From an uncultured Pseudomonadales bacterium (lineage in GTDB: Bacteria > Pseudomonadota > Gammaproteobacteria > Pseudomonadales > Azotimanducaceae): DNA of 64,000 bases. The notes beneath the pieces were generated by a model that was given only the letters and a program-made list of their open reading frames with translations, was not told the DNA's origin and made no database searches. Each line of letters opens with the position of its first letter. The stretch's first letter is position 1. Location of the stretch: positions 33,162 through 97,161 of the forward strand of contig CASIBO010000008.1 of assembly GCA_949372755.1 (NCBI GenBank), written 5' to 3'. Both the position numbers and the translations under genes were made by a program. Positions 43,818-64,000 of the stretch are shown one piece after another.

Positions 43818-44055
43818 TGGTTTCCCAATTTGACCACATCGAAAGCGTAGAGGGTAGATCCAAGGCTGATGCTGACTTCAGGTTGGGAGGGGCTAACGAT
43901 GATGAGCTACTGAACTCGATTTGATTGATTCAGCGTGAAGCTTTAACCTCTTATAACGATTTGAGATTAATAAGCTCTAAGGTTCAACGCCGCGCTTTTC
44001 AGTGCTTTTGGTGCAGCCAACCGTAGCAGTTTATTCCTGGAGAGAAAGCCACCTA

Positions 44056-50000: not shown

Positions 50001-50106
50001 GTTGGCGAAAGGTCAATATTGGGCTTGGGCACACGATTACAACAATTATCAGCGAGGCAGTAATTCCGGTCGGTATTGCCAGCGTTTGGAGGTCGTGCCG
50101 CAATGA
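44056..50106 (+). CDS. giant secreted multidomain protein: 4x PPC-like repeats, TSP3 repeats, clan-CD C13-like peptidase, TSP3 repeats, dockerin-like pair, Gly/Ser/Thr/Asp linker, HExxH metallopeptidase, C-terminal PPC-like domain
   Basis: Signal peptide MIHFFIPALFMVASLLASA. FEPNNS...SDVD.Y repeats. Clan-CD dyad VDHGDDG (His codon 46444-46446) and YDACQSGSF (Cys codon 46567-46569). HEWGH at 49147-49161 with a downstream EGWANAY. Confidence 0.85.
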   Translation: MIHFFIPALFMVASLLASADSRPGRAIIDFEPNNSIDAAESIQLGREVDGSLASMSDVDVYMVTIDKTSKLSLAFRSELRESNGWKYELLNEEGSVLGASFCDFTDCENGETLSVGVQSGTYYLKVLPESDSSNESFLPDGAYFFTLTAVDEFSTVEFEPNNSTEVSQAVNFNKTYEGQLSSMSDVDFYTFAIDNTAKLEIAFQSELRESNGWKYELLNEEGGVLSASFCDFTDCENGETLSVGVQSGTYYLKVLPESDSSSESFLPDGAYFFTLTAVDDFSTVEFEPNNSTEVSQAVNFNETYEGQLSSMTDVDFYTVTVEKTKKLEITFQSELRESNGWKYELLNEEGSVLGASFCDFTDCENGETLSVGVQSGTYYLKVLPESDSSNESFLPDGAYFFTLTAGDDFSTVEFEPNNSTEASQAVNFNKTYEGQLSSMSDVDFYTFAIDNTAKLEIAFQSELRESNGWKYELLTEEGSVLGASFCDFTDCENGETLSVGVQSGTYFLKVLPESDSSSESFLPDGAYYFLIEFGDKDEDGIFDEDDNCLKTANPDQLDTDTDGFGDACDDDDDDDGTADTNDAFPLNADETVDSDGDGIGNNADADDDNDGVEDGNDAFPFDSAENSDADLDGVGDNSDAFPQDANESLDSDQDEVGDNADNCPELGNTDQIDTDGDAAGDACDADDDNDGVSDELDFYPLDSSRTKYGGQRALIIAGGGPYEGNFLWTATQNMANVAYDALRTQGLSDDNIEYLSEEVRARVDGLPTVANIKKSIESLADADEEKITDVLIYMVDHGDDGVFKIDESTFLGASDLKVWLDDLHAKHDIRSTLIYDACQSGSFIPLLGSQDDTNRLVITSSAALENAWFASDGYLSFSYYFWTIFRSGGDFSEASIAAKNAMGFQFRQTAKFDANGNGVSDEKTDKLLIKDFAFGLGAVQASEFPVVGAIEVQRELNGELSVPITVASVGGGTAVEKVLVILTTPDKPIIAPDEPLVNLIDTELTQNEDGSWGGVVAGFEAKGSYELSVIAESKSGLTSFPTEENTNSVTVQQNIGRDPIVQSDTDRDGVADATDPDDDNDNVLDADDAFPTDAAESKDTDGDGVGDNADLDDDNDALSDADELLLGTDSLNADSDSDGFSDGLDALPLDATESIDTDSDGVGNNADQDDDGDGLDDISEIQSGLNPLLTDSDNDGVDDGIDAFPLDGSETVDSDLDGIGDTQDAFPTNPDETLDQDGDGIGDNADVFDDDPFEAYDTDSDGLGNNADPDDDNDGFSDDEEIAAGTDPLGASSCPGCFSFDVDNDGEAKALTDGLLVIRHLFGFSDEALTAGAVGSNASRTTPADIAAYLTNAATELDVDGDDEAKALTDGLLLIRQLFGFTGNALTAGAVGETAERATASAIQAYITQRLPDSNGSASGSDDGVGADTGDAGGSDTAGSDTGEDTGGTTSGGSTDGGTSDGDTDSGGDTGGTDGGSAGTKTIEIDVVYDRVPYRAPECTASGCSYRGLDYANIVQKPVRFAKAQVLDADSKAIVTDNLRTDAAGRLSFSVGDDDAFIVRVYAESPGNGSASWGLRIVDNNGADQEGSYPVYVLESQAVGANAVDEPLTLRAASGWGLTKYTQTRSAAPFAILDSMVSATLYALSGRSTLIFAPVDVYWSIANSTDTVGTSYYSGAYIMILGDAEVDTDEYDESVIVHEWGHYFQSILSKDDSLGGSHGGGDLLDMRVAFSEGWANAYSGLATARDAYIDTSGSQQAGGFGIALEIELTEREGAVKGWYSEDSAQYLVYDLFDDGASDDDNVALPVSVMMSSLIDFMPQQAAATSIFSFSAGVIDAQPNQSSLIMALLDRENIGRGRVQIDSLGSGETNSAGEYAAVENIEAMTLPVYTVLDSSLISADMCQDVLPASAPRVFGIDNKLGAYRFAQFEISQAGNYTVRLTTTAKPLGAASDPDFGVYNAQGLIGPQLNELTGAVDLESHILQLAKGQYWAWAHDYNNYQRGSNSGRYCQRLEVVPQ
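44143..45655 (+). repeat. four tandem 384-bp (128-aa) near-identical coding repeats
   Basis: The FEPNN start recurs at 44143, 44527, 44911 and 45295. Off-frame ORFs 44456-44653 and 45224-45421 are almost identical, which indicates a 768-bp higher-order periodicity. Confidence 0.9.
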
Positions 50107-50771
50107 AAAACCTATTGATGATGCTCTCGGTTCTGGCATTGCTCGGTTGCAAGGCTCTTGATTCAACGGTGAGTGCGAACCCTGAGGGCCCAGTTGGGGC
50201 GGAGGTCATTCCCGGAACCGACACTACAACCTCTAAGGCGACTAGCCCGTTGACCAACCCGCTGCCGGTCAGCGATGGTGAGGTTAGCAGGCGTGCTAAC
50301 GGCAATGGTCCGTTGTGGACGATCCGCTCTGAGCAAATTGCGGCGCGATCGCAAGGTCACAGCGTAAAAACCCAATCACGAACCGCCAAGCCGCAAGGCC
50401 CCTTTACGGTGCGGTATGTCTTAGAGAGCTGGACCCCTGATGACCACCGTTTGGTGGTAGAAGTGCAAAGTAATCAAGTCATTAGTGATTGGTGGCTTGA
50501 TTTGCCGCAAATATCTGAAAAGCTCGAAACAGCTCAGTTTGCTAAGAAACATAATGCGACAGAGCCGGGCGCGGCGGAGTCGAGGACTTTTAGGTTGGGT
50601 ACACTGCCCCGGGCCAACCGATTGTTGTTGACCGTCCGAGCATTGGTTTCGGGTGTAACGACCTCAAAAACGGTTGTGATACCCCTAAGGTCGCGCTTAA
50701 ACCAAGGCGTTCGAACCTGTGATGAGGCTAGGACTGATTGCGTCGTGGCGTTGCCGGGAACGCTTCGATGA
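50103..50771 (+). CDS. lipoprotein of unknown function
   Basis: MKNLLMMLSVLALLGC lipobox. The ATG overlaps the stop of the giant gene (ATGA). Confidence 0.6.
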   Translation: MKNLLMMLSVLALLGCKALDSTVSANPEGPVGAEVIPGTDTTTSKATSPLTNPLPVSDGEVSRRANGNGPLWTIRSEQIAARSQGHSVKTQSRTAKPQGPFTVRYVLESWTPDDHRLVVEVQSNQVISDWWLDLPQISEKLETAQFAKKHNATEPGAAESRTFRLGTLPRANRLLLTVRALVSGVTTSKTVVIPLRSRLNQGVRTCDEARTDCVVALPGTLR

Positions 50772-50849
50772 GAATTTTCTTCGATGCTTAAAGCGGACGT
50801 TGCTTAATGGGCGCCAAGCTATTTCAGGATCATTTTGATATATTTAGGC

Positions 50850-50877
50850 TTGCAACCGGAGCGCTCCATGGTAGAAT
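50850..50877 (+). promoter_or_regulatory. candidate sigma70 promoter
   Basis: TTGCAA, a 16-nt spacer, then TAGAAT with TGn immediately upstream (extended -10). It lies about 75 bp upstream of the 50953 start. Confidence 0.45.
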
Positions 50878-50952
50878 CGGAAAAGGATTTGTGTCCATTT
50901 ACGACCGATTGATAGGTATGTTTAGCCAATATAATTGAAGCTTAGAGGAACT

Positions 50953-53900
50953 GAGATGAAGAACCTGAAACATTCATTGTTGCTTTTAATGAAAGCGGCA
51001 TTAGCGAGCGTGGTGTTAATGGCCTCTGCTGCGGTTGCAGACAACCAGATTATTACGGTGTCCCCTGCAGAACCAGCGTTCGGAGAGAGTGATGAGTCGG
51101 TTACTTTTTCGGTGGTCTATGCAACCGACCCGGAAAATACGGGGGTTCCTGGCTTCGGGCTAAAGATGTACTTTAATAGTGCCGTTTTAGAAGGCAAGGC
51201 ACTCAATGTGAATCCTGATATCGGTGGTCAGCAGACGGGTCCTTCTGTTCAAGCCGATAGTGCGGACGGCGATAATGATGCAAATACCGATAAAGTCGTT
51301 GTTGTAGCCTGGATCGAAAATACCAAGCAAGAAGGTTTTGGTGATACGGTGAGTGTTCCTTGGCCGGAAGTTGAAGATTTTACCGGTGGTGTATCGATAA
51401 TCGATGTCACCTTTGGTCGAGCCGACACAACTTTTACAGGAAAGAGTCAGGTTAATTTTATACTCAGTACAGCGGCAGGGTTTGACGCCAAGGCTGATTC
51501 GTTTGATGTTATTTTCAAAGACGATGAAACTGCGCCCGTAGTCACACTGGGCGAGTCTAGCGTCACAATTGAAGCCGTTGGGCCGCTAACCTCGGAAGAT
51601 AACGCTACAGCCCTTGCCGATTTTATTAAAACCATAACGGTTGAAGATAACAAGGATACTCTGACCACTGAGAATCTAGACGCATTTGTCACCCAAGATG
51701 GCGCGTTGGTTGCAGCCCCCGAAGGCTTTGCACCAGGCACTTACGAAATCACATTTATTGCATCGGATAGTTCCGGCAATAAGTCAGAAGGTGTCGTGGT
51801 GACCCTGACGGTTGCTGATACGACCCAGCCGGTCCTAAGCGGTGTATCCAATGTCGCATTATCCGCCGCAGATAAGAATGGTGCTCCATCTGCTGGCGTA
51901 CTTGCCGCCGTCGCGCTTGATAGCGTTGATGGTGAAGTTGTGGTCGCTTATTCCGTTGGTGGGGCTGATGTGGGAGATAATTTCCCACTAGGCGAGACAA
52001 CCGTTACGGTAAAAGCAGCCGACTCAGCTGGCAACATGGCGGAAGGCACCTTAGTCGTTACCGTTAGTGATACCACCAGTCCAGTCATTGTTTCTGCTGC
52101 CGGGGTAGCCTTGGAAGCCGATGGCGAGCTGGGGTATGGTGGTAGTACAGCAAGTATTATTGCCGCAATCGGTGTGTCGGATAATGTTGATGATGCGCCG
52201 GCGGTCACGCTAGGCGCGTCTGTGCCGGAAGTCTTGCCGTTTGGGGTTACCCAAGTTGCTGTAGTGGTGACGGATGCCGCGGGTAACGCAACAGAGGGTA
52301 CTGTGCCCGTTACCGTTGCCGATACTACGAAACCAGAATTCTCGGGCGCTAACTTACTGGTGCTAACCGTTGATGCGGCTGATGAAGTGGTTGCTAGTGA
52401 TGATGCCCGGGTCACGACCTGGTTGGCCGGCGTCACCGCAACGGATATTGTCGATGGCGCAACGGATGTTACCAACAGCGCGTTACCCAGTACTTTTGCA
52501 GTGGGTGAAGCGGTTATTACCTTTACATCCTCCGATTCGCGAGGTAATGAAGCATCAGCCGAGGCCACCATACTCGTGACGGTCGGGCCAGCGGTCACGG
52601 TTGCGGACGCTATAACAGTAGTGTCGCTAGATGGCGCGGCTTTGCCAGCGTCTCAAACGCAAATTGCGGCGTTTATTGCTGCCGCTAGTGCAACGGATTT
52701 CTCGGGCGTGGTCTTGGATGTGACGAACGATGCTCCAGATACTTTCGCTATTGGCGACACCTTAGTGACCTTTAGCGCGGTTGATGCCGATGATCGACAA
52801 GGCCAGAGCAGCTCGACGGTCACGGTTGTCGCAGCATCTGCTGAAAACGACACCGATAATGATGGCATCGATGATCTGTTTGAAGTTGAAAATGGACTCG
52901 ACCCCAATGCAGACGATGCTGAGGCTGATGCCGATGGTGATGGCCGAAGCAATCTAGACGAGTACCTAGAAGGTACAGATCCTAATGTAGATGATGTGAA
53001 ACCGATTGTTACCGCACCGGCCGATGTGGCGACGGGTGCAACTGGCGCGCTCACGAAGGCTGATCTAGGCGAAGCAACAGCGAGCGATACCTTAGATGGC
53101 GATCTTACGCCCATTGCCGATAACCCTGGTCCTTATGCACCCGGTAGCTACACGGTCACATGGTCGGCGACGGATGCGGCTGGCAACGTGGGTATTGCGA
53201 CGCAATCCGTCGTGATATCGCCGCAGGCGTCGGTCACGCCAAAAGGTCGGGTAGCGGAAGGCGCAGACTTCCTGGTTGAGGTCACATTAAATGGGCCCGC
53301 GCCAGCGTATCCGGTTGAAATCCCTGTAACGCTTGGCGGCACAGCTGAGCTAGACAGTGATTACACCGTATCCGTATCGTCCATCGTGATCGAGTCGGGT
53401 CGAATCGGTATTATGACAATCTCGGTGCTGTCTGATGAAGTTGAAGAGGGTACAGAAAGCATTGAAGTGACCTTGGGTGCACCTGCTGCCAATGCAGTAT
53501 TGGGCTCAGCCTTAACAAGCCTGATTAGTATTATTGAAACGCAGGAGCCACCTGCTCTGAAGTTGTCCGTTAGTCAGGGCGATCAAAATGGTCGGAAGGT
53601 TGCAGCGGAAGGTGGGTCCGTTATGGTCACGCTCAGTATCAAGGACCCCAATGGCACGCATACAGTGGACTGGAGCGGATCAGACAACAACCTGGTCGCA
53701 ACCTCTGAAGACGGTGCGATGATGTTCGAATTTGATCCAGCCGCATTAGCAGAAGGTGGCTATGAAGTCGCAGCGATTGTCACAGATAGTGGCATTGCAG
53801 AGACAACCTTCGATATTGGCGTCTTGATTCGAGTCGCTGCAGAAGCGGTTGAAGCGGACTCGGATGGTGACGGGGTTCCAGATAGTAAGGATACGTCTGA

Positions 53901-54609
53901 AGAAACGAATGTTATCGCGGTCGACGCCGACGCCGGCACGGCCGCTGTAACGGCGGATGCGGGCGTGAAGCTTGTAATCGGTGATGCGGCTCAAGCGTCT
54001 GGCACATCCGGTATCGCGGTCTCGGAAGAGACTATCGCGGCCAGCGGAGCGGATGGTGGTGAAGCGCCAAGCAATGGTGATGACGAAGACTTCAACTACC
54101 CAGCTGGGGTCTACGACTTCCAAGTTCAAGATCTGCCGGTACCGGGTCAATCTGTTCGATTGAGCATTCCGGTCGCAGCAGGCATTCCGGCTGATGCTGT
54201 CATGCGGAAGTATACGGAAGCTGAAGGCTGGTTTGATTTCGTCATCGATGAAAACAATGGCGTTGCTTCGGCCCCTGGTGACGATGGTGCTTGCCCATCC
54301 GTCGGCTCTGAACTGTATGTTGATGGCTTAACGGAAGGCGACACCTGCCTGCAGCTCACCGTACAAGACGGTGGTCCAAACGATGCAGACGGCTCCGTGA
54401 ACGGTGAATACGATGATCCAAGCGGGATTGCTGAAGCCGCGCCAGTTAAAGTTGTTATCGTTCCTGACACCTCGAGTCGAAAGAAAGTCGGCGGGGGTTG
54501 TAGTGTCTCTGAAGGCGGCCCGGGTGATTTTGGTCTTGTGTTCTTAGCGTTGCTCGGCGCGCTCGGTTTGTTCCGAAAGCGCCTTGCTGCGAGCCTTCTG
54601 AATCGTTGA
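50953..54609 (+). CDS. large cell-surface protein: cohesin-like N-domain, HYR/Ig-like repeats, TSP3/EF-hand-like segment, Calx-beta, choice-of-anchor-like domain, C-terminal Cys-containing TM sorting signal
   Basis: Signal peptide MKNLKHSLLLLMKAALASVVLMASAAVA. Repeated DTT.PV...G...V...A.D..GN units. The Calx-beta-like segment is AEGADFLVEV...LDSDYTV...EGTESIEVTL. The C-terminus reads DGGPNDADGSVNGEYDDPSG, then GGGCSVSEGG, a hydrophobic helix, and RKR. Confidence 0.8.
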   Translation, partial: EMKNLKHSLLLLMKAALASVVLMASAAVADNQIITVSPAEPAFGESDESVTFSVVYATDPENTGVPGFGLKMYFNSAVLEGKALNVNPDIGGQQTGPSVQADSADGDNDANTDKVVVVAWIENTKQEGFGDTVSVPWPEVEDFTGGVSIIDVTFGRADTTFTGKSQVNFILSTAAGFDAKADSFDVIFKDDETAPVVTLGESSVTIEAVGPLTSEDNATALADFIKTITVEDNKDTLTTENLDAFVTQDGALVAAPEGFAPGTYEITFIASDSSGNKSEGVVVTLTVADTTQPVLSGVSNVALSAADKNGAPSAGVLAAVALDSVDGEVVVAYSVGGADVGDNFPLGETTVTVKAADSAGNMAEGTLVVTVSDTTSPVIVSAAGVALEADGELGYGGSTASIIAAIGVSDNVDDAPAVTLGASVPEVLPFGVTQVAVVVTDAAGNATEGTVPVTVADTTKPEFSGANLLVLTVDAADEVVASDDARVTTWLAGVTATDIVDGATDVTNSALPSTFAVGEAVITFTSSDSRGNEASAEATILVTVGPAVTVADAITVVSLDGAALPASQTQIAAFIAAASATDFSGVVLDVTNDAPDTFAIGDTLVTFSAVDADDRQGQSSSTVTVVAASAENDTDNDGIDDLFEVENGLDPNADDAEADADGDGRSNLDEYLEGTDPNVDDVKPIVTAPADVATGATGALTKADLGEATASDTLDGDLTPIADNPGPYAPGSYTVTWSATDAAGNVGIATQSVVISPQASVTPKGRVAEGADFLVEVTLNGPAPAYPVEIPVTLGGTAELDSDYTVSVSSIVIESGRIGIMTISVLSDEVEEGTESIEVTLGAPAANAVLGSALTSLISIIETQEPPALKLSVSQGDQNGRKVAAEGGSVMVTLSIKDPNGTHTVDWSGSDNNLVATSEDGAMMFEFDPAALAEGGYEVAAIVTDSGIAETTFDIGVLIRVAAEAVEADSDGDGVPDSKDTSEETNVIAVDADAGTAAVTADAGVKLVIGDAAQASGTSGIAVSEETIAASGADGGEAPSNGDDEDFNYPAGVYDFQVQDLPVPGQSVRLSIPVAAGIPADAVMRKYTEAEGWFDFVIDENNGVASAPGDDGACPSVGSELYVDGLTEGDTCLQLTVQDGGPNDADGSVNGEYDDPSGIAEAAPVKVVIVPDTSSRKKVGGGCSVSEGGPGDFGLVFLALLGALGLFRKRLAASLLNR

Positions 54610-54613
54610 TTTG

Positions 54614-55063
54614 ATGACGCGTTCGCGTAATTTACACGAGTTGATTTGGGGCGCCTTGATAGGCGCCCTTTTTCTTTGGGGTGGCGCTTCCTGGTATTGG
54701 GCTCTGACGCCTAGCTTTAGTTGGGTCATGTTGCAGTGGCCAATGTTTTTTGCAGTGTGTGTGGCCAGCCCTGTTCTAGAGGAATATGTGTTTAGGGGGC
54801 TTCTTTATGAAGCGGTTGATGCACGCTGGCCTCGGGTCTGGCCGGCGGGTGCACGCTTATCGATCAGCTTCGCAAATGCCATGACGACCTGGCTGTTTGT
54901 GATAGCGCACATGATCGCGCGGGATCCAATCGCGGGCGCTTTAGTGCTTCTACCCTCGATCTATTTAGGGTTGTTACGGGCGCGTTATGGTGGAATAGGC
55001 GTCTGCATGCTCGTCCATGCGGCCTGGAACATTGGGTGGTTCAGTTTGTTTCCGCCGGCGTAG
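54614..55063 (+). CDS. CPBP-family (CAAX-like) glutamic-type intramembrane protease, small form
   Basis: All three CPBP motifs are present: EEYVFRG, FVIAHM and HAAWN. There are four predicted TM helices. The gene starts 5 nt after the stop of the surface-protein gene. Confidence 0.8.
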   Translation: MTRSRNLHELIWGALIGALFLWGGASWYWALTPSFSWVMLQWPMFFAVCVASPVLEEYVFRGLLYEAVDARWPRVWPAGARLSISFANAMTTWLFVIAHMIARDPIAGALVLLPSIYLGLLRARYGGIGVCMLVHAAWNIGWFSLFPPA

Positions 55064-55155
55064 AATTTGGAAGTCCCAGATTCTACGCTATAGTCAGTTA
55101 GCCAAGAATTTGTCACAATGACGGCGTCGCGTCTGTCACTAAAAAGGAATCTCTT

Positions 55156-55455
55156 ATGCCATTTTTTATGAGACTCGGTCTGCTCTGGTTGCTGAGCGCC
55201 TTTTGCTCAGCGTCGTTCGCCAGTATCCCGGCTGGGCGAATCAATGCGATCAATGCGCAGTTAGCGGCAGGGCAGTATCAAGCAGCAGAAAAAGCAACTT
55301 TAGTTCTACTCGAATCCCAGCAACTCTCAACCGATGATGTGAACACCTTAGAGGCTCTGGCGAGTGGTTTCACGGCTGCAGGACTTCGTGACCAAGCCGG
55401 GACGCTGTTATCCAAAGGCTGCAGAACTGTTAGGTGCACCGCAAACCAGCAGTGA
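55156..55455 (+). CDS. signal peptide plus helical-repeat fragment, probably the displaced N-terminus of the CHAT protein
   Basis: MPFFMRLGLLWLLSAFCSASFA signal peptide. The ORF overlaps the next ORF by 92 nt in a different frame, and the repeat-like sequence continues across the junction. Confidence 0.45.
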   Translation: MPFFMRLGLLWLLSAFCSASFASIPAGRINAINAQLAAGQYQAAEKATLVLLESQQLSTDDVNTLEALASGFTAAGLRDQAGTLLSKGCRTVRCTANQQ

Positions 55456-57379
55456 TCGAGCAACGTTGCTGCGTATTGGTGCGAGCTTGCAAGCTTTAAA
55501 CCTACGAAGTCAGGCCGCGGGAATTCTGACTCGGGGCATTCGAATTACAGGTAAAGATGCAGCCGATAGTTTAAATGCCGCTGGGTTTCAGTCGCTGGGT
55601 GATCTTGCCTTTGAAACCGGTGATCTAGAGGCTGCAGATTCCGCTTATACCAATTCTGAAACGGCCCTGGAGGCTGATGACCTTCAAGCGCGTGCGGCTT
55701 TATTGGTGCGGCAAATTAAGCTCGCAGTCGCCAGCACGGATGCCGTTCAAACCCGAGACTACTATAAAGCCTATCAAGGCCTACTCTTACAATTAACGGG
55801 TGATACAAGTCTTGCCCGAATGAACTTAAACGTTGCGGCAAGCCTGATGGCATCTGGCGAGTCAACCTGGGCGCCCGATGTTACGCTGCTCATCGAACAG
55901 TCAGCGATGATTGGTTCGGCGGACGCGCAGCTGATGTCCGAGGTGGAACAAATGCGCGGTCAGGTGGCCGCGCTCTCGGGTCAGCCGGATGCGGCGCTGA
56001 AGATGCTCAGGCGCGCACTCGCGGGACTGGGCTCGGACGCAACGCCTGCTCAAACCTATCGTCTGTATTGGCAGATCGGTAAGCTTCAGGCTGAGGCCGG
56101 TGAAATCGATGCGGCATTAAAAAATTACGAGCGCGCCATCGCAAATCTAGACCGGATTCGCGGAGAGTTGTTGCAGGGCAGCACCTTGGTGTTTACCGAA
56201 AGGGTGCTACCGGTTTATCAAGGCTACATCGAGTTGTTATTAGAGAAAGCCAAGGTGCCTGGTCAGGAGGGCAAGTGGTTAGGGCAAGTGCAACAAACCC
56301 TAGAAGGCCTTAATGCAGCAGAAATTTTAGATTATTTTGACGACAACTGCGTGCTACCTCGCGATGTGATGAGTCTTAGCAACACGGCGGCCGGGACGGC
56401 GGTGTTGTACCCGATTACGCTAGGCACGCGTCCCGTACTGCTCGTGCGAACTGCGAACGGCATCTTCCGATTTGATCTGGCGGTGGGTAACGCCGAACTA
56501 AAATCGATGGCGCTGGCTTTTCGCGAGGCCATCACAAATCCCGAAACATCCCTGAGCGCTTATCAAGCCCAAGCGAGCGCACTCTTCACGGCGCTTTTAG
56601 GGCCTGCTCAGGGCTTGATCGAGCGATCTTCGATTACGACGCTGGTCACGGTGCCAAGTGCGTATTTACGGCTTGTGCCCATGGCGGCGCTGCACGATGG
56701 CGAAGACTTCCTAGTCAACCGGTATCAGTTAGCCACCACTCTTGGGCTGCAATTGACGGAAAATGCGAGCGTTGACAATGTCAACAGCTCGGCTTTTATC
56801 GGCGGCGTGTCGGACGCGGTACAAGGGTTTGTTTCCCTGCCGGGTGTTGAAACCGAACTGGCAGAACTGAAAGGCGCGTTATCTGCAACGCCGCTGCTGA
56901 ATCGAAATTTTTCAGTCGCCAATGTCTCAAGACGCTTAAGTTCTGGCAATGACAGCATTGTTCATCTAGCGACGCATGGTTATTTCGATGGTGATCATGC
57001 CAATTCATTTCTGTTAGCGCATGATGACAAAATCACGCTCGATCGGTTGCAAAGCACAGTGGGGGCTCGGCGTTTCACGGGTAATCCCTTAGACCTTTTA
57101 GTGCTCAGTGCGTGCGAAACCGCGAAGGGAGACGAGCGGGCGGCGCTGGGGTTGGCCGGGGTGTCTCTCAAGGCTGGTGCGCGCAGCACGGTGGCATCCC
57201 TCTGGCCCATTGCGGACGCGGCAACTGCCATGCTGATGAAGCGCTTCTATGAAGAATTGCGCGCCGGAAAAAGCAAAGCGGCGGCGCTTCAGTCGGCCCA
57301 GCAGATGCTGTTGTCCGACCCCGAATGGGCGCATCCAAATTATTGGAGCCCCTACCTACTCATCGGCAATTGGCTCTAG
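55364..57379 (+). CDS. TPR-like repeat / CHAT domain protein (caspase-fold clan CD peptidase)
   Basis: The C-terminal CHAT signature is HLATHGYF...LLVLSACETAKG...ASLWPI.D. The N-terminal region is helical-repeat. Confidence 0.8.
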   Translation: MVSRLQDFVTKPGRCYPKAAELLGAPQTSSDRATLLRIGASLQALNLRSQAAGILTRGIRITGKDAADSLNAAGFQSLGDLAFETGDLEAADSAYTNSETALEADDLQARAALLVRQIKLAVASTDAVQTRDYYKAYQGLLLQLTGDTSLARMNLNVAASLMASGESTWAPDVTLLIEQSAMIGSADAQLMSEVEQMRGQVAALSGQPDAALKMLRRALAGLGSDATPAQTYRLYWQIGKLQAEAGEIDAALKNYERAIANLDRIRGELLQGSTLVFTERVLPVYQGYIELLLEKAKVPGQEGKWLGQVQQTLEGLNAAEILDYFDDNCVLPRDVMSLSNTAAGTAVLYPITLGTRPVLLVRTANGIFRFDLAVGNAELKSMALAFREAITNPETSLSAYQAQASALFTALLGPAQGLIERSSITTLVTVPSAYLRLVPMAALHDGEDFLVNRYQLATTLGLQLTENASVDNVNSSAFIGGVSDAVQGFVSLPGVETELAELKGALSATPLLNRNFSVANVSRRLSSGNDSIVHLATHGYFDGDHANSFLLAHDDKITLDRLQSTVGARRFTGNPLDLLVLSACETAKGDERAALGLAGVSLKAGARSTVASLWPIADAATAMLMKRFYEELRAGKSKAAALQSAQQMLLSDPEWAHPNYWSPYLLIGNWL

Positions 57380-57391
57380 GAGGGGACACGC

Positions 57392-58972
57392 ATGAAACGC
57401 ATACAAACGATATTAACCACCTGTCTTCTGGCGCTGTCTTTAATCACCAGCAGTCAGGTTGCAGCTGATAATCAAGATCTTGCTAGTGGTATTGTTCTAA
57501 AAGCAGTGACGGTGACCGATGCCACAGTCTTTAGCGAGACCGACCTAAACACTGCAATGGCACCTGCGATCGGTAAAACCGTCTATATTGAAGACATCCT
57601 AGGGATGGTCGACGCCGTTACCGCGCTTTACGTCGAGGCCGGCTACATCACCTCTGGCGCTATTCTGCCTAATCAAGATGTTGCTGATGGCCGTATTACG
57701 ATTGCGGTCGTTGAAGGGCAGCTAAATGGCGTGATCATCAATAGCGCAGGGCGTTTAAAAACGGCTTTCATTGAGTCTAAGATTAAGGCCACCGCCAGCG
57801 GCCCGCTCAATCTTGCGGATTTGCAGAGGGCGATCTCTCGACTTGAGGCGGAACCAACAATTTCCCATGTGCGGGGCGATTTAAAGCCGGGCGACACGCG
57901 GGGCACGTCGATTTTGGATCTTGAAGTCGTCGAAGCCGATGCGTTTAAAATTTTGGTTGGCGCCGACAATTACAAAAGCCCCAGTGTGGGTGAGGGCCAA
58001 GCCGTTGTCTCGCTTGCACATTTAAACCTGCTGGGCTTCAACGATCAGCTGAATGTTAGTGCTCAGCGGAGTGATGGCGTGGATGCCATATCGGTTCGCT
58101 ACGATGTACCCATTTCGATCTTACGATCTCGCCTGGCGGTCTATCATAGCCAAGGTGACACCTTGGTGGTTGAAGAGCCTTTTGATGAAATTTTTCTCGA
58201 AAGCGAGACCGACACGTCCGGGATTCAACTTTCCTCAACTTGGCGAGAAGACAATGGGCGGTCTTGGCGAACGAATCTGTCTTGGGAAACCAAGGAGAGC
58301 CTCACGACGTTGCTCGGTTTGCCCTTTGACTTTTCGCCCGGGTCTCGCCTGGGTGTGACCGAAGCCAGTGTGCTCGGCTTCAATGTTGAATATAGCCAGC
58401 GCGGCGATGGTATGGGATTCATGCTTCGTGCTGGCTTGCGTTCAGGCAGCGATGACAAGGGCCAGGGCAATGCAGCCGATGAGGGTGATTTCAGTCTCTA
58501 TCAGGTGCAAACCCAGTGGATTAAGCGTTTAAACCAAGATCCGCTGCAACCCGCGTGGCTGCTCAACTTTAATCTCAATTATCAGGAAACGAGCGACACG
58601 TTACCGGCATTTGAACGCATGGGCTTGGGCGGTCATGGCACGGTGCGGGGTTTTCGGGAAAATCGTTGGCTAAAAGACTCGGGGCTGACCGCATCGCTGA
58701 TGCTCAGTGCGCCGCTGCTGGAAGCGGGTAGTCAAAACGGTATCGCCGTGCGTGCGATGCTGTTTTACGACTACGGTCGAGGGGAGAACTCGGTGGCAGC
58801 GCTTAATGTTGATACCGAGGTTTCGCTTAGAAGCGCAGGCTTTGGGTTAACCGCCGACTATCAAAAATTGAAGTTTCGAATTGAACGCGCGCTGCGCCTG
58901 AACAAGAAAGACAAACTCGGCAATGCCTTACAAGACAGCGGTATCCATGTGGGAGTGACGTATGAACTCTAA
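57392..58972 (+). CDS. ShlB/FhaC/HecB-family two-partner secretion outer-membrane transporter (TpsB)
   Basis: Signal peptide, POTRA-like N-terminus, a beta-barrel with the GLGGHGTVRGF motif, and a terminal YEL. Confidence 0.88.
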   Translation: MKRIQTILTTCLLALSLITSSQVAADNQDLASGIVLKAVTVTDATVFSETDLNTAMAPAIGKTVYIEDILGMVDAVTALYVEAGYITSGAILPNQDVADGRITIAVVEGQLNGVIINSAGRLKTAFIESKIKATASGPLNLADLQRAISRLEAEPTISHVRGDLKPGDTRGTSILDLEVVEADAFKILVGADNYKSPSVGEGQAVVSLAHLNLLGFNDQLNVSAQRSDGVDAISVRYDVPISILRSRLAVYHSQGDTLVVEEPFDEIFLESETDTSGIQLSSTWREDNGRSWRTNLSWETKESLTTLLGLPFDFSPGSRLGVTEASVLGFNVEYSQRGDGMGFMLRAGLRSGSDDKGQGNAADEGDFSLYQVQTQWIKRLNQDPLQPAWLLNFNLNYQETSDTLPAFERMGLGGHGTVRGFRENRWLKDSGLTASLMLSAPLLEAGSQNGIAVRAMLFYDYGRGENSVAALNVDTEVSLRSAGFGLTADYQKLKFRIERALRLNKKDKLGNALQDSGIHVGVTYEL

Positions 58973-61358
58973 AATGACTTTTCGATCGATCGCCTATTCG
59001 GCAACGTGTTCTGCTTGGTTGCTTGCCAGTTCAGCGGTTATCGCCGATATCACGCTTCAGGAAACGGGCGAAACCTTAACCGGGGACATGACCATCAGCC
59101 AAGAGATGGGGCTGACCCAAGGTACAAACTTGTTGCACACCTTTTTAGCTTTTAACGTTGATCCGGGTGAATCAGCGACCTTTACGGGTAGCAATGCCAT
59201 TACTAATATTGTTGCGCGGGTAAGTGGTGATGGGGCCTCCCAAATCGATGGGTTATTACGCTCAACCATTACCGATGCGAACTTGTTCCTGATTAATCCC
59301 AACGGGGTTGCGTTTGGGGCGGGCGCCAGTATTGATATTAACGGCAGCCTGCACATCTCAACAGCGGACAGCATTGTCTTCGGGGATGATTCCAGGCTGT
59401 TGGTGTCGGACACCGGTGCCAGTGGCTTTACCGCTGCGGCGCCATCGGCCTTTGGTTTTTCAGGGGTTGGGGCTGGCATCACCTTCGACGGCACGATGAT
59501 TTCAACCCTCAACACGGATCGCGCGGCAGGCCTTTCCCTAGTGGGCGGTGATATTACGTTGTCTGAGAGCTCGATTACGTTTGCCGGTGGCACCATTGAC
59601 CTGATTGCGACCCAGGGCGAGCAGGATGTGGCCATCACGATGGCAGATCGCAGCTTTGACAACACGGCCCTAGGCGCGATTACGATTACCAATGCAGAAT
59701 TCGTGGCCGGCAAGGTTGATCTGGACGTCAGTGGCGATGCGGCAGGGCAGTTATCGCTTGCCGGCGCCAACGTGACCTTAGAGCGCGCGTTCGTGTTTTC
59801 CGATACCGAAGGCACCGGCACCGGTGGCGCCATTAATGTGCTTGCGACCGAGGCGTTAACGTTAATCGAGGGTGCGCGGATTACCACCGATACCACAGGT
59901 GGCGGCGCGGGCGGTGACCTGGTCATCCTGGCTGGCGATGTGTCGCTATCGGGCACCAACACAGCACTTGCCGCAAGTACGATTTCGGCTGGAGGCATTG
60001 CCGGCAGCATTGACGTGACAGCCAATAGTATTGACATCCTTGACGGCGCTCAGGTGAGCTCGGTAACCAGTACGGCCAGTCCGGGCGGTGATATTACCCT
60101 CAACACCGGTGATTTAACGATGGCGTCTGGTGGCCAAATCTCGGGGCAAGCAACCTCGCGCGGGCAAGGCGCTGATGTGGTCATTAACGCAACCGAATCA
60201 ATTGTCATTGATGCCACCGGTACCAACCCAGGCGAAGAGACTGGGATCCGGGTCGACAGCATTAATTTCTTACCGTTCTTCGTGGGCGGGGATGCGGGCG
60301 ATATTGTCATTACAGCCCCCAGCTTAACGCTAAAGGGCAGTGCGGTGATTGCAGCGCAAGCGTCCTTGCCCAGTTCAGGCGCACCTGGCGCCATCACGTT
60401 GAATGTCGAGCAACTGGCAATTGAAGGCGGTAGCTCTGTTTCAACCTTATCGAGCGCAAGTGCCGATGCGGGCGCAATCTCCGTTAATGCGAGCACCGTA
60501 TCCCTTATCGGCGCGGGTTCTGGGTTTAACTCAACCACGCGGCGAAGCGGTGGGGGCGGCAGCATTGTCGTTATGGCCGATAATTTCACGATGAGCGGCG
60601 GCGCAACGGCAGATACCTCGACAGAAGGCGCTGGGGCTGCCGGTAATATCAGTATTGATGTCACGGGTTCGGTCAACTTGACGGATGCGAGCTCTGAACT
60701 TGCCAGTCGGTCAAGCGGTGAAGGCAGGGGAGGTAATATCAGTGTCTCGGGTGAATCCTTAACGTTTAGTAACAACGGCGTGCTGTCGGTCACCGCAAGT
60801 GGCGCCGGAGACGCCGGTAACATCAGCCTTATGGCCCTGAACCGGCTGGAAGTATTGGATGGCGCGCAGGTTCAAACCAATGCTGAAAACTCGGGTGGGG
60901 GTAATATTGATGTTGCGGTCATCGATACCATCTATTTGCGCAACGGTACCCTGACGGCTTCCGCTGGTGGCGCTGAGGGCAGTAGCAACGGCGGTAATAT
61001 CAACATCGACCCCAGATTCCTGATTTTAGACAACGCAAGCATTGTGGCCCAGGCGGTTGCAGGCAATGGCGGTGTGATCGAATTGGTCGCAGACAACTAT
61101 ATCGCCGACATTAACAGCTTCTTGGATGCCTCTAGCGAGCTTGGGAATGATGGCGAGGTGCGCATTACAACACCTTATAACTCCATCTCTGGCGTTTTAG
61201 GCACGCTCAACGCGAACTTCGATGCGGTGGCGCAGATCGCAACCGATGCGTGCTCCGCGCGTAATTTAGAGCAGCGTAGCAGCCTGATCGTTGAGCAGAA
61301 ACGCGGCAACCTTAATGCGCCGGGTGATTTAAGGCCGATTCAGGGCGAAGAGTGCTAG
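58962..61358 (+). CDS. filamentous-hemagglutinin N-terminal (TPS) domain protein, beta-helical TpsA exoprotein
   Basis: The TPS domain reads GTNLLHTFLAFNV..GESATF....IVARVSG...SQIDG......NLFLINPNGVAFG. A Gly/Ala/Ser/Thr-rich beta-helix repeat region follows. It overlaps tpsB by 11 nt. Confidence 0.85.
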   Translation: MNSKMTFRSIAYSATCSAWLLASSAVIADITLQETGETLTGDMTISQEMGLTQGTNLLHTFLAFNVDPGESATFTGSNAITNIVARVSGDGASQIDGLLRSTITDANLFLINPNGVAFGAGASIDINGSLHISTADSIVFGDDSRLLVSDTGASGFTAAAPSAFGFSGVGAGITFDGTMISTLNTDRAAGLSLVGGDITLSESSITFAGGTIDLIATQGEQDVAITMADRSFDNTALGAITITNAEFVAGKVDLDVSGDAAGQLSLAGANVTLERAFVFSDTEGTGTGGAINVLATEALTLIEGARITTDTTGGGAGGDLVILAGDVSLSGTNTALAASTISAGGIAGSIDVTANSIDILDGAQVSSVTSTASPGGDITLNTGDLTMASGGQISGQATSRGQGADVVINATESIVIDATGTNPGEETGIRVDSINFLPFFVGGDAGDIVITAPSLTLKGSAVIAAQASLPSSGAPGAITLNVEQLAIEGGSSVSTLSSASADAGAISVNASTVSLIGAGSGFNSTTRRSGGGGSIVVMADNFTMSGGATADTSTEGAGAAGNISIDVTGSVNLTDASSELASRSSGEGRGGNISVSGESLTFSNNGVLSVTASGAGDAGNISLMALNRLEVLDGAQVQTNAENSGGGNIDVAVIDTIYLRNGTLTASAGGAEGSSNGGNINIDPRFLILDNASIVAQAVAGNGGVIELVADNYIADINSFLDASSELGNDGEVRITTPYNSISGVLGTLNANFDAVAQIATDACSARNLEQRSSLIVEQKRGNLNAPGDLRPIQGEEC

Positions 61359-61592
61359 CTGGATAGACCTTGCTCTCAAAGGGTGGTTAAAAGCTGCGAA
61401 GCCTCTTAGCAGTGAACGAAAAAAGATCTATAGGCTTCAATTGCGCGTGATCAGTGTCTTCATGGCTTAATTTAAAGCGAGCGGTGGTGGTCGCTAAGCC
61501 GCCAAGCCCTTCCGAGCACAGTTCCTAGAGTGCATTAACACCTAAGGACTTTTATTCTATGCCAGCCTACCCGATCAGATTGAGACATTGGA

Positions 61593-64000
61593 GTGAACGC
61601 TATCAACAAGCCGACTAAGCCGATTGGGATTAAAAGCCAACTAAAGGTCTTATTGGGATTAACGGTATTAATTGGCAGTTTTTTTTCCTCAGCTGTCTCC
61701 GCGGCCGATGCTTTCGAGCCAAACGATGCGCTGAGTCAAGCCACGCTATTGGTGGTTGGTAACCCTAATCCGCAGCCACATACTTTAGATCCTGACAAGG
61801 ACGTTGACTGGTTCAGGTTTAATGCACAGTTTTTCGAAGTCTATGACATCAGGACACTTGGGCTCGGCGCAACAGTTGACCTTGCTATTGAGGTTTTCGA
61901 TGAGAATGGTGATCGCGTTGGTGAAGTTGAAGACTCCGGTTTTAAAGGCGAGGCAGAGGCGTTTTCTTTTCGTGCACCGTCAACTGGTACATTTTACCTC
62001 AAGGTATATGACTATTATTGTATTAATGGTGGTGATGGCTGCGCCGCGCCAAGAGGCGATGAAGCAGCCTATAGCATTCTGATCTTTATACCTATCGGCG
62101 CAGTGGGTGGCGCTGATTTGGCGATCGTTCATGAATCTGCGACGGAGGGTGTTGTAGGGACCCCATTCTCACTTGGTATTGAAGTGACAAATAATGGCGG
62201 CCAAGAAGAAGACGACACAGCGGACAACCTCTTAATCCTTACCTATTCTGAGCCGCAATTGCCAAAGCCTGCAAGCCTGCCTGAAGGATGCGAGGGCGAG
62301 GTAGGGCTCGTGATGTGTACTAAAGACCAGTTGGTCGCCGAGGATCGTTTTGGTTACACCCTCAATTTTGAATTTTCGGATGTTGGCAAAGTTCGGTTCA
62401 CCAGCACCGTGGCCGCCTTCGAAAATCCAGATTACACCCTGCAGCAAGCGGATGATCAGTGGTCAAATAATGTCGTTGACGAGGTCGTGACTATTAGCGA
62501 GGGCTCGGGCGGCGGCATTACGGATAGCGATAATGATGGTGAACCCGATAGCACTGATAACTGTCCCAATACCGCTAATGCAAACCAAACAGACACCGAT
62601 AACGATGACGAGGGCGATGCCTGCGATAAGGACGATGATGGGGATGACATTGCGGATAGCGCCGACAATTGTCCCCTGATCAAAAACACAAACCAAACCA
62701 ATACGGATGATGACAGCAAGGGTGATGCCTGCGACACCGACGATGATGACGACGCGTTGCTCGACGGCGCGGACAATTGTCCCCTGATTGCTAACGCTGG
62801 CCAAGCTAACAACGATGATGATGCGAACGGCGACGCGTGTGATGCCGACGATGATAACGACGCAATACTGGATGAGGTGGACAATTGCACCTTGATTGCG
62901 AATGCGGAACAGGCGGATGCGGATCTTGATGGAGATGGGAATGCGTGTGACACAGACATTGATGGCGACCAGGTGCTCAACAATGTCGACAATTGCCCGC
63001 TGATTGAAAACCAAAATCAAGCCGATGAGGACCTTGATGGGGATGGCGATGCGTGTGATGCCGATATTGACGATGACCAGGTGTTCAACGACGCCGACAA
63101 TTGCCCCTTTGACCCGAATACCGATCAAGCTGATTTAGATAAAGACAATACGGGCGACGCGTGTGATGCCGATATCGACGGCGATGCTGTGCTCAATGGG
63201 GATGACAACTGCAAGCTGATCGTGAATGCGGATCAAGCCGATGAAGATGAGGATGGGCTCGGGGATGCGTGTGATGAGAATAGCGCCCTCGACAGTGACG
63301 AGGACGGAATAAACGACGATCTGGACAATTGCCCGAATGATGCCAATGCCGATCAAGCGGATGCGGATAATGATGGTGTGGGCGATATTTGTGATACCAG
63401 TCCAAATGATTCCGATGATGACGGCATTGATGATGATGTAGACAACTGCCCATTAGTTGATAACAGCGATCAGTTTGATTTTGATGATGATGCGGTGGGG
63501 GATGCCTGTGATGCTGATGCCGATGGTGACTCGATTGGTGATGCGGAGGATTTGTTTCCCTTTGACGCGAGAGGGGGGCTGGACGCGGACAATGATGGTA
63601 TGGCCGATGAATGGGAGGCGCTCAACGGTTTAGATAGTGTGGATGCCGCTGATGCGAGCTCGGATGCGGACGGTGATGGGTTAACAGCGCTCGAGGAGTT
63701 TGAGGGCGAAACCGACCCCAACCAGTCGGATCTGCTGGCCCAGAGTCTTACGTTTGAGGCGCCGAAATTCTTGGTGATCGGTCAAGCCGCAACGATCAAG
63801 CTTTTTTACGTCGCGGCAGATGGTCAAAGCACCACGGGACTTGCATTTAGAGTGCATTACGATAAAGCGGTCCTAAACGGCTTGATTGGTGATTATTTCT
63901 CAGTGTTTCAAGAGGGTGGGATCCGCCTTGGCGGGGTGGCATTCGACGATATCGAAGATCTCGACAATGACCCGCTTACCGACACCTATGAGGTGTTCGC
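61593..64000 (+). CDS. secreted PPC-domain / canonical TSP3-repeat / cohesin-like protein (3' end outside the window)
   Basis: This ORF is not in the supplied track because it has no stop in the window, so I translated it by eye. It has a signal-like VLLGLTVLIGSFFSSAVSAADA, a PPC motif FEPND...DVDWFRF, about 10 repeats of DNCP...N..Q.D.D.DG.GDACD, and then a FRVHYDKAVL cohesin-like segment. The start codon is uncertain: GTG at 61593, with an in-frame TGA at 61581. Confidence 0.75.
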   Translation, partial: MNAINKPTKPIGIKSQLKVLLGLTVLIGSFFSSAVSAADAFEPNDALSQATLLVVGNPNPQPHTLDPDKDVDWFRFNAQFFEVYDIRTLGLGATVDLAIEVFDENGDRVGEVEDSGFKGEAEAFSFRAPSTGTFYLKVYDYYCINGGDGCAAPRGDEAAYSILIFIPIGAVGGADLAIVHESATEGVVGTPFSLGIEVTNNGGQEEDDTADNLLILTYSEPQLPKPASLPEGCEGEVGLVMCTKDQLVAEDRFGYTLNFEFSDVGKVRFTSTVAAFENPDYTLQQADDQWSNNVVDEVVTISEGSGGGITDSDNDGEPDSTDNCPNTANANQTDTDNDDEGDACDKDDDGDDIADSADNCPLIKNTNQTNTDDDSKGDACDTDDDDDALLDGADNCPLIANAGQANNDDDANGDACDADDDNDAILDEVDNCTLIANAEQADADLDGDGNACDTDIDGDQVLNNVDNCPLIENQNQADEDLDGDGDACDADIDDDQVFNDADNCPFDPNTDQADLDKDNTGDACDADIDGDAVLNGDDNCKLIVNADQADEDEDGLGDACDENSALDSDEDGINDDLDNCPNDANADQADADNDGVGDICDTSPNDSDDDGIDDDVDNCPLVDNSDQFDFDDDAVGDACDADADGDSIGDAEDLFPFDARGGLDADNDGMADEWEALNGLDSVDAADASSDADGDGLTALEEFEGETDPNQSDLLAQSLTFEAPKFLVIGQAATIKLFYVAADGQSTTGLAFRVHYDKAVLNGLIGDYFSVFQEGGIRLGGVAFDDIEDLDNDPLTDTYEVF

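Follow-up and report, generated by a model that had tools for sequence, protein, structure and literature searches.

Two-partner secretion (TPS) is usually described as a two-component pathway, made up of a transporter, TpsB, and an exoprotein, TpsA. In one of the closest described systems, that of Pseudomonas aeruginosa, the C-terminus of CdrA bears a cysteine hook that keeps the protein in CdrB, and LapG, a cysteine protease of the periplasm, releases CdrA by cutting its tail (bioRxiv 10.64898/2026.07.13.738186; PMC5422565). In another, FhaB/FhaC of Bordetella, published accounts describe N-terminus-first export of an exoprotein whose C-terminal region is kept in the periplasm and then proteolysed, with DegP, CtpA and SphB1 as the processing enzymes (PMC5422565; PMC4542190). 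A 2017 review of TPS names LapG and SphB1 and leaves other TpsA-maturing proteases unidentified (PMC5422565), and a 2012 survey of polymorphic toxins lists caspase peptidases for toxins of the type II and type VII secretion systems, PVC and TcdB/TcaC, and for type V secretion systems only HINT (PMC3482391). Here we describe a trio of genes from an uncultured Pseudomonadales bacterium (Azotimanducaceae), found in a 64,000-nt stretch of contig CASIBO010000008.1 (assembly GCA_949372755.1, positions 33,162 to 97,161, hereafter the window), that encodes a TPR-CHAT protease, a TpsB and a TpsA. We interpret the trio as a single module that couples two-partner secretion to a dedicated periplasmic protease of the caspase fold.

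Analysis of open reading frames (ORFs) with Pfam and NCBIfam placed the three genes on the forward strand in tight packing, in the order TPR-CHAT, TpsB, TpsA. The CHAT stop codon lies 12 nt from the TpsB start, and the TpsA start falls inside the 3' end of TpsB, with an overlap of 11 nt. Shine-Dalgarno-like sequences were found 6-8 nt 5' of each ATG (GAGGGG six bases 5' of the TpsB ATG, GGGAG ahead of the TpsA start), and signal peptides were predicted at the N-termini of all three proteins. A sigma-70-like promoter match (TTGGAA-16-TATAGT, 55067..55094, forward strand), which is a consensus match only, falls in the 93 nt that separate mrtJ from the CHAT gene. Promoter and terminator scans found sites no commoner than in shuffled sequence (2 promoter sites seen against 5.7 expected), so this match is not evidence of function, and we infer co-transcription of the trio from gene spacing only. 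A preliminary description of the region had reported the 12-nt gap, the overlapping genes and a 798-aa TPS-domain protein, all as we find them, and had called the arrangement an operon; its domain assignments and the operon-like packing stand, and co-transcription keeps the qualification just given.

The two secretion proteins are ordinary in their domains. TpsB (526 aa, 57392..58972, forward strand) has a signal peptide, a POTRA_2 domain at 57497-57718 (E 1.1e-20), a ShlB barrel at 57902-58849 (E 1.2e-26) and the L6 motif VRGF at residue 418, and it has no cysteine. Its closest solved relatives by sequence match to the PDB are CdiB (6wim) and FhaC (4qky), in agreement with its earlier designation as FhaC-like. 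TpsA (798 aa, 58962..61358, forward strand) begins with a signal peptide and a TPS domain at 59037-59681 (E 9.3e-29; NCBIfam adhes_NPXG scores 67 bits, above its cutoff of 29), and it carries NPNG at residue 112. In an AlphaFold2 (AF2) model of TpsA (mean predicted local distance difference test, pLDDT, 84.9; predicted TM-score, pTM, 0.83), residues 30-738 form one unbroken beta-helix, and the fold matches of this model are HxuA, EtpA, HMW1, FHA and HpmA. The two proteins thus have the sequence features of two-partner secretion (type Vb), and export of TpsA via TpsB is predicted on that basis. A VENN motif was looked for in TpsA and none was found; past the beta-helix, which runs to about residue 738, there is nothing but a conserved tail.

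The TPR-CHAT protease gene (55156..57379, forward strand) encodes 740 aa when intact and is interrupted in the window by a 1-nt insertion, which we take up below. An intact version, protein P0001, is encoded on L001, a 445-kb metagenome contig that is 99.5% identical to the window over 18.8 kb; the window CHAT is 99% identical to it. The downstream ORF (55364-57379) matches Pfam CHAT (PF12770) with an E value of 2.6e-57, and the domain spans 56567..57370 on the forward strand. Within it, His607 (codon 56975-56977, motif HLATHG) and Cys653 (codon 57113-57115, motif LSACETAKG) occur in all 202 aligned sequences and form the predicted catalytic dyad; this Cys is the residue that the preliminary description had singled out for mutation. 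TPR matches in the ORF were weak, all below Pfam cutoffs. The AF2 model of P0001 (pLDDT 86, pTM 0.80) has 18 helices over residues 26-394, assigned to the repeats, followed by a CHAT core at 414-740, and its best PDB fold matches are Csx29 (8eey_B, E 1.4e-14), the periplasmic TPR-CHAT protein DdvA (8rot_A, E 3e-12) and separase; for Csx29 and separase TM is about 0.45-0.5 and sequence identity only 11-16%. Whole-chain matches to Csx29 and DdvA support the modelled architecture of a helical repeat array followed by CHAT, in line with the helical repeats proposed from the letters of the DNA.

Two further features of the CHAT protein bear on its relationship with TPS genes. A Sec-type signal peptide, MPFFMRLGLLWLLSAFCSASFAS, is encoded at 55156..55224 (forward strand) and reads MPFFMRLGLLWLLSAFCSASFA/S, starting at 55156; a probable signal peptide had been suggested earlier. 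A crude hydrophobicity test found an N-terminal hydrophobic, signal-like segment in 94 of 112 CHAT homologs. Cysteine occurs only twice in the mature CHAT protein, as Cys653 and Cys398 (DYFDDNCVLP, codon 56348..56350, forward strand), and the latter is specific to the TPS-linked CHAT subfamily: position 398 is Cys in 94/95 close homologs and in 82/82 CHATs of the loci described below, and the 25 TPR-CHATs of a more distant group have A, R or G there. Membership in an anti-phage defence system was considered and rejected, as PADLOC gave just a weak BovA match via the CHAT core.

The genetic linkage of CHAT to TPS genes extends well beyond this window. A scan with a pattern from the CHAT alignment, using one genome per species, found at least 595 relatives, and the best 80 loci were kept; these come from Pseudomonadota, Myxococcota, Nitrospirota, Verrucomicrobiota, Desulfobacterota, Campylobacterota, Abditibacteriota, Cyanobacteria and Entotheonella (about eight phyla). 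The loci were searched as six-frame ORFs with hidden Markov models (HMMs) built iteratively from the window proteins. Among the 43 well-flanked loci, defined as having at least 5 kb on both sides of CHAT, 36 (84%) carry a TpsB and/or TPS-domain ORF within 10 kb of CHAT, and 28 carry one within 500 nt. The binomial P for 36/43 is about 3e-40 if the TPS background per 20 kb is assumed to be at most 5%. At least 14 gene orders or orientations were seen among the 29 loci with all three genes, so the linkage survives rearrangement. At the locus L084, on a Mb-scale contig, MqsR/MqsA and PIN toxin-antitoxin pairs and a transposase (4124-4826, 12203-12792) lie between the TPS genes and CHAT, and the cluster can therefore be loosened.

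The linkage was also seen from the side of the exoprotein. A CHAT gene lies within 8 kb of TpsA in 4 of 6 TpsA homologs on long contigs, and two of these four have the window order CHAT-TpsB-TpsA among unrelated flanking genes. TPS neighbours were found at none of three more distant TPR-CHAT loci. RefSeq annotates an adjacent 'filamentous hemagglutinin N-terminal domain-containing protein' and 'CHAT domain-containing protein' in both Nostoc punctiforme PCC 73102 and Nostoc sp. PCC 7120, two model cyanobacteria and genetically tractable hosts. The preliminary description had mentioned a recurring CHAT-TpsB-TpsA neighbourhood, including in cyanobacteria, and had named a lack of enrichment of CHAT beside TPS genes as what would refute it; the counts given here bear out the statement and do not refute it on that ground. 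CHAT, TpsB and TpsA are, we conclude with high confidence, functionally coupled. A full-text search of open-access papers found none linking CHAT to TPS genes; the individual parts are ordinary members of known families, and the combination, which we found filed nowhere, appears uncharacterised.

In some relatives the parts occur on one chain. Three fusion proteins, L048 (1,519 aa), L077 (2,093 aa) and P0188 (more than 1,200 aa, with a CHAT end that appears truncated), consist of a TPS domain, a beta-helix, the tail module described below, TPR and CHAT; the L048 and L077 fusions are free of ambiguous bases. Two other candidate fusions were rejected. The apparent TpsB-TPR-CHAT fusion at L032 has an ambiguous base (X) exactly at the junction, followed by Met and a signal peptide, and was read as two adjacent genes, and the long CHAT ORF at L049 is stop-free upstream read-through in high-GC DNA, with the true start and signal peptide inside it. 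The long CHAT ORF at L080 contains no ambiguous bases.

The most distinctive part of the TpsA proteins linked to CHAT is their C-terminus. A conserved module of about 120 aa, covering the final beta-helix coils plus the tail (60999..61355 in the window, forward strand), is shared by 60 of 61 TPS ORFs at the loci and by every one of the 120 best TpsA homologs. Residues 740-798 (61179..61355, forward strand) form a conserved unstructured tail, with pLDDT 26-35 in the AF2 model, that contains Cys764 (61251-61253) and the terminal Cys798 (61353-61355). Its consensus is roughly ASSxxGxDGxVxIxxP, 25 residues, C-A-A-R, about 5 residues, SSFVVxGRGGLPxxP. All 187 tails have the invariant Cys764. The spacer between P738 and this Cys measures 25 aa in 157 of the 187 and 23-26 aa in 185, and S774 and P787 lie 12 residues apart in 180. 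In 78% of tails a second Cys stands close to the C-terminus, and in the window TpsA it is the last residue, C798. These two are the only cysteines of the mature window TpsA, and Cys is otherwise almost absent in these TpsAs. The tail is conserved in sequence and length yet has no predicted fold, as expected of a segment that functions bound to a partner. The preliminary description saw no recognisable toxin or adhesin C-terminal domain in TpsA, and neither type is there, but it overlooked the conserved module of about 120 aa with its unstructured tail.

No Pfam or NCBIfam model covers the TpsA tail. A profile built from it matched 9,247 representative clusters (50% identity) at E<=1e-3 and 3,359 at E<=1e-10 among 1.84 billion, and the matches always lie at or near the C-terminus. 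The tail thus defines a large TpsA subfamily that is tied genetically, over about eight phyla, to a predicted periplasmic caspase-fold protease. Tandem TpsA genes, two or three in number and each with its own tail module, stand beside a single CHAT at L074 (1653-9548), L078 (3-8966) and L086 (8001-13707).

Two additional gene families are frequent near CHAT. DUF928 was found in 36/81 loci, a CHASE2 sensor fused to an adenylate/guanylate cyclase (CHASE2+Guanylate_cyc) in 37/81, and at least one of the two in 46/81; both also occur at L084 and L086, and the protein P0027 is a DUF928-CHAT fusion. HMMs built from the 36 and 37 loci found no DUF928 or CHASE2 homolog in the 64-kb window, which therefore holds a minimal three-gene form. 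Neither family occurs within 8 kb at L082 and L083, two close CHAT-TpsB-TpsA loci, suggesting that the core module works without them. In the open-access literature, we found DUF928 mentioned in just one paper, on an unrelated subject.

In our proposal, to which we give an even chance, the tail of TpsA is bound and cut by the CHAT protease, and the rod is thereby released or matured. TpsB would export the TpsA beta-helix rod with its N-terminus leading, and the conserved, unstructured C-terminal tail of about 50 residues would remain in or below the TpsB pore. A cysteine hook may help to retain it there, formed inside the tail by Cys764-Cys798 or between the two proteins by a mixed disulfide of Cys764 with Cys398 of CHAT. 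The Sec-exported TPR-CHAT would then recognise the tail, probably via its helical repeats, and cut it with the His607/Cys653 dyad, so that cleavage would release or mature the surface rod. It is this arrangement, with the rod outside, the tail in or below the pore and TPR-CHAT at the periplasmic end, together with the parallels to CdrA and FhaB, that leads us to propose cleavage of the tail by CHAT. The natural fusions run in the order rod-tail-TPR-CHAT, which is the same order as the proposed topology. The preliminary description had offered three possible roles, and CHAT-mediated maturation or release of TpsA fits best, based on the unstructured conserved tail with its putative Cys hook, the CHAT signal peptide and the fusion order.

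Of the described systems, CdrA/CdrB with LapG and its receptor LapD is similar in having a TPS pair, an exoprotein with a C-terminal, Cys-containing retention segment and a periplasmic cysteine protease acting on the tail, the last two being what we propose for the trio; relatives of the trio are also linked to a membrane nucleotide-signalling protein. The protease differs, as LapG is of the BTLCP/DUF920 type and lapG lies outside the cdrAB operon, whereas the trio protease is a caspase-fold TPR-CHAT. The only protease fold found was CHAT, not that of the LapG family (BTLCP), and the TAAG cleavage motif of LapG substrates was looked for in TpsA and is absent, which places the trio outside the Lap systems proper. 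The receptor differs as well, being a CHASE2-cyclase in the trio relatives (probably outside-in, with none in the window) and a cyclic di-GMP receptor in the case of LapD (inside-out). FhaB resembles the proposed module in its order of export and processing, and the natural rod-tail-TPR-CHAT fusions recall its periplasmic prodomain. That prodomain, however, is about 1,200 aa and has no protease fold, and the enzymes that act on it in Bordetella are serine proteases of a general kind or without genetic linkage, in contrast to the dedicated, caspase-like and genetically linked enzyme of the trio.

The protease itself has relatives of similar build in other settings. Csx29, of the type III-E CRISPR effector Craspase, and separase also combine TPR-like helical repeats with a CHAT domain and a His-Cys dyad, but they are cytoplasmic and switched by RNA-guided Cas7-11 or securin, whereas the trio CHAT has a signal peptide and TPS partners. 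Its conserved neighbours are TpsB, TpsA, DUF928 and CHASE2 rather than cas genes, and PADLOC gave no Csx29 match; the Craspase partnership with Cas7-11/gRAMP and a Csx30/RpoE module is thus not seen here. The anti-sigma factor DdvA of Myxococcus xanthus is the only solved periplasmic TPR-CHAT, is proposed to cleave an adjacent flexible linker, and shows that the TPR-CHAT fold can operate in the periplasm (PMC11506125). DdvA differs in being membrane-anchored, fused to a zinc anti-sigma domain and without three active-site helices, and it controls a sigma factor of the extracytoplasmic function (ECF) class rather than a secretion substrate. In polymorphic toxins that have a caspase-like releasing peptidase, a caspase-fold enzyme is likewise associated with a secreted filamentous protein, as its proposed processor (PMC3482391), but the trio has neither a C-terminal toxin domain nor an immunity gene. 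The marks of contact-dependent inhibition (CdiB/CdiA/CdiI) are also missing from the trio, with no VENN, no variable toxin end, and a PPC/TSP3 gene about 370 nt away as the next gene.

Several observations count against the cleavage proposal or limit its reach. The periplasmic location of the tail, its contact with CHAT, its role as substrate and the outcome of cleavage are all inferred. The second Cys is missing from 22% of tails, and no conserved P1 residue is evident, Arg767 and Arg780 being conserved only 61-65%. The remaining two of the six TpsA homologs on long contigs are solitary, with neither TpsB nor CHAT nearby, and the P value for linkage uses an assumed (at most 5%) rather than a measured TPS background. 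DUF928 and the CHASE2-cyclase could be the real substrates or partners elsewhere, CHAT in the fused forms could equally be exported C-terminal cargo, and in this window the CHAT gene is broken by the 1-nt insertion.

Some of these points lead to other readings of the same genes. The neighbours with a cyclase suggest a trans-envelope sensor, in which the rod, the pore-threaded tail and TPR-CHAT would be tethered and a surface event would activate the protease on another periplasmic target (DUF928 or a CHASE2 receptor), sending a cyclic AMP or cyclic GMP signal inward. The frequency of DUF928 and CHASE2-cyclase at the CHAT loci and the DUF928-CHAT fusion favour such a role, the rod-tail-TPR-CHAT fusions have exactly such a topology, the subfamily-specific cysteines, being paired, would be consistent with tethering by a disulfide, and separase, Craspase and DdvA are TPR-CHATs that are switched allosterically (PMC11506125). 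Both partner families are, however, absent from the window and from within 8 kb at L082 and L083, and the cleavage target is hypothetical, and we consider this sensor rather unlikely. The surface-sensing proteolytic switch of the preliminary description is a possible role that these frequent neighbours encourage, though both are absent from the window. In a more specific form, which we regard as unlikely, the module would be a trans-outer-membrane device whose rod is tied to periplasmic CHAT via the fixed-length tail in the TpsB pore, by a Cys764-Cys398 disulfide where the genes are split and by a peptide bond where they are fused, so that surface events would switch proteolysis and feed DUF928 and the CHASE2 cyclase in most lineages; if so, it would provide the first known input for CHASE2. 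The protease might instead be the cargo, a TPR-CHAT effector that the TPS system carries to the cell surface or into the medium, in fused forms as the C-terminal domain, to act on external substrates. The three fusions put TPR-CHAT at the TpsA C-terminus, the usual site of TPS cargo or toxin domains, and TpsAs with C-terminal peptidase domains are known, for example StbD, which is CdiA-like with a cysteine peptidase toxin. Yet TpsB pores pass unfolded, TPS-bearing chains (PMC5422565), and CHAT in the window and most loci is a separate protein with a Sec signal and no TPS domain, for which reason export of the protease by the TPS pathway, another of the roles first suggested, is disfavoured for split genes but may hold for fused forms. 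The tail module is also kept just upstream of the fused TPR-CHAT, more like a boundary than a linker to cargo, and no small immunity-like gene adjoins the trio, and thus we find delivery of the protease as cargo distinctly unlikely. A sortase-like arrangement, finally, would make the tail a C-terminal sorting signal that CHAT, as a clan-CD transpeptidase, removes while attaching TpsA covalently to the envelope (compare GPI8 and PorU). Clan CD does include transpeptidases, the invariant Cys and fixed tail geometry would suit a signal, and known sorting systems, among them the JDVT-CTERM/MrtJ pair immediately upstream, show the same pattern of a conserved signal at the C-terminus and a dedicated protease next to it. 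To our knowledge, though, CHAT enzymes are not reported to include a transpeptidase, the tail lacks a transmembrane helix, there is no known acceptor, and the simple release model accounts for the same data, making this arrangement highly improbable.

A further alternative concerns the state of the module in this genome, where it may be a decaying remnant with a real frameshift, a CHAT protein that is not exported and a trio that is no longer one functional unit. The preliminary description treated 55156-57379 as a single CHAT ORF, which proved wrong: the gene is split into an ORF of 99 aa (55156-55455, frame 1), which carries the signal peptide, and one of 671 aa (55364-57379, frame 2). The frameshift site (55411..55412, forward strand) has CC in place of the single C of relatives, with the extra C at 55412 (TTATCCAAAGG in the window, TTATCAAAGG in L001), and it cuts the signal peptide and first helices off from the remainder. 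The deposited record of the contig annotates the 671-aa product, which has no signal peptide. A programmed frameshift, in which a +1 shift would restore the protein, was considered and rejected, as no recognised slippery motif is present there and the relatives simply do not have the extra base. Against decay, the source is a metagenome-assembled contig, in which a lone indel over 18.8 kb might have arisen during assembly, and the extra C is the sole uncompensated coding indel across the sequence shared with L001. TpsB and TpsA are both full length, and nearly all full-length members read in the CHAT protein cluster are 740 aa. The window CHAT differs from that of L001 by 10 synonymous and 2 nonsynonymous codons with no further lesions, indicating that the gene was under purifying selection until very recently. 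The module in this assembly is therefore either disabled or mis-assembled; an assembly error and a fresh inactivation would each explain the extra C, and decay of the module as a whole seems to us possible but somewhat doubtful.

The comparison with L001 also revealed uneven divergence along the window. Over 45156-64000, single-nucleotide differences number 0.2-0.8 per kb in the upstream genes and 5-12 per kb in CHAT, TpsB and TpsA. The ratio of synonymous to nonsynonymous differences is 10:2 in CHAT, 14:9 in TpsB and 13:14 in TpsA, so the surface rod TpsA changes fastest. A compensated +1/-1 indel pair at 57449 and 57459 falls in the TpsB signal peptide, changing SSQV to AVRS relative to L001, and an 8-nt indel at 61616 is intergenic, 3' of TpsA.

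If the protease does act on the tail as we propose, the module would offer a general and testable mechanism for the surface retention and release of the rods of this subfamily. TPR-CHAT enzymes, so far known from CRISPR immunity and the segregation of chromosomes, would gain a place in envelope biology, and the DUF928 and CHASE2-cyclase neighbours would give a concrete starting point for learning what the CHASE2 sensor domain detects.

The surroundings of the trio, from 44 to 64 kb of the window, are a series of large secreted or surface proteins. The gene at 44002-50106 (forward strand) encodes a 2,034-aa protein with TSP3 repeats and a Peptidase_C13 segment (legumain, also of caspase fold), and it contains 3.7 tandem copies of a 384-nt repeat at 44215-45642, with GC content down to 0.475 at 44-46 kb. 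Directly upstream of the trio, in the 50935-55063 region (forward strand), lies a 1,224-aa HYR/Ig-repeat surface protein with a JDVT-CTERM-like end (E 5e-4, below cutoff), and one base after it starts MrtJ, the CPBP intramembrane protease of the JDVT-CTERM system (81.5 bits against a cutoff of 75). These two form a second pair of C-terminal signal and dedicated protease beside the CHAT trio, and the JDVT-CTERM/MrtJ pair is not kept beside the trio in L082 or L083. On the other side, the ORF that follows TpsA after about 370 nt (61731-64000, forward strand) encodes a PPC domain and ten TSP_3 repeats, and its gene extends past the window end.

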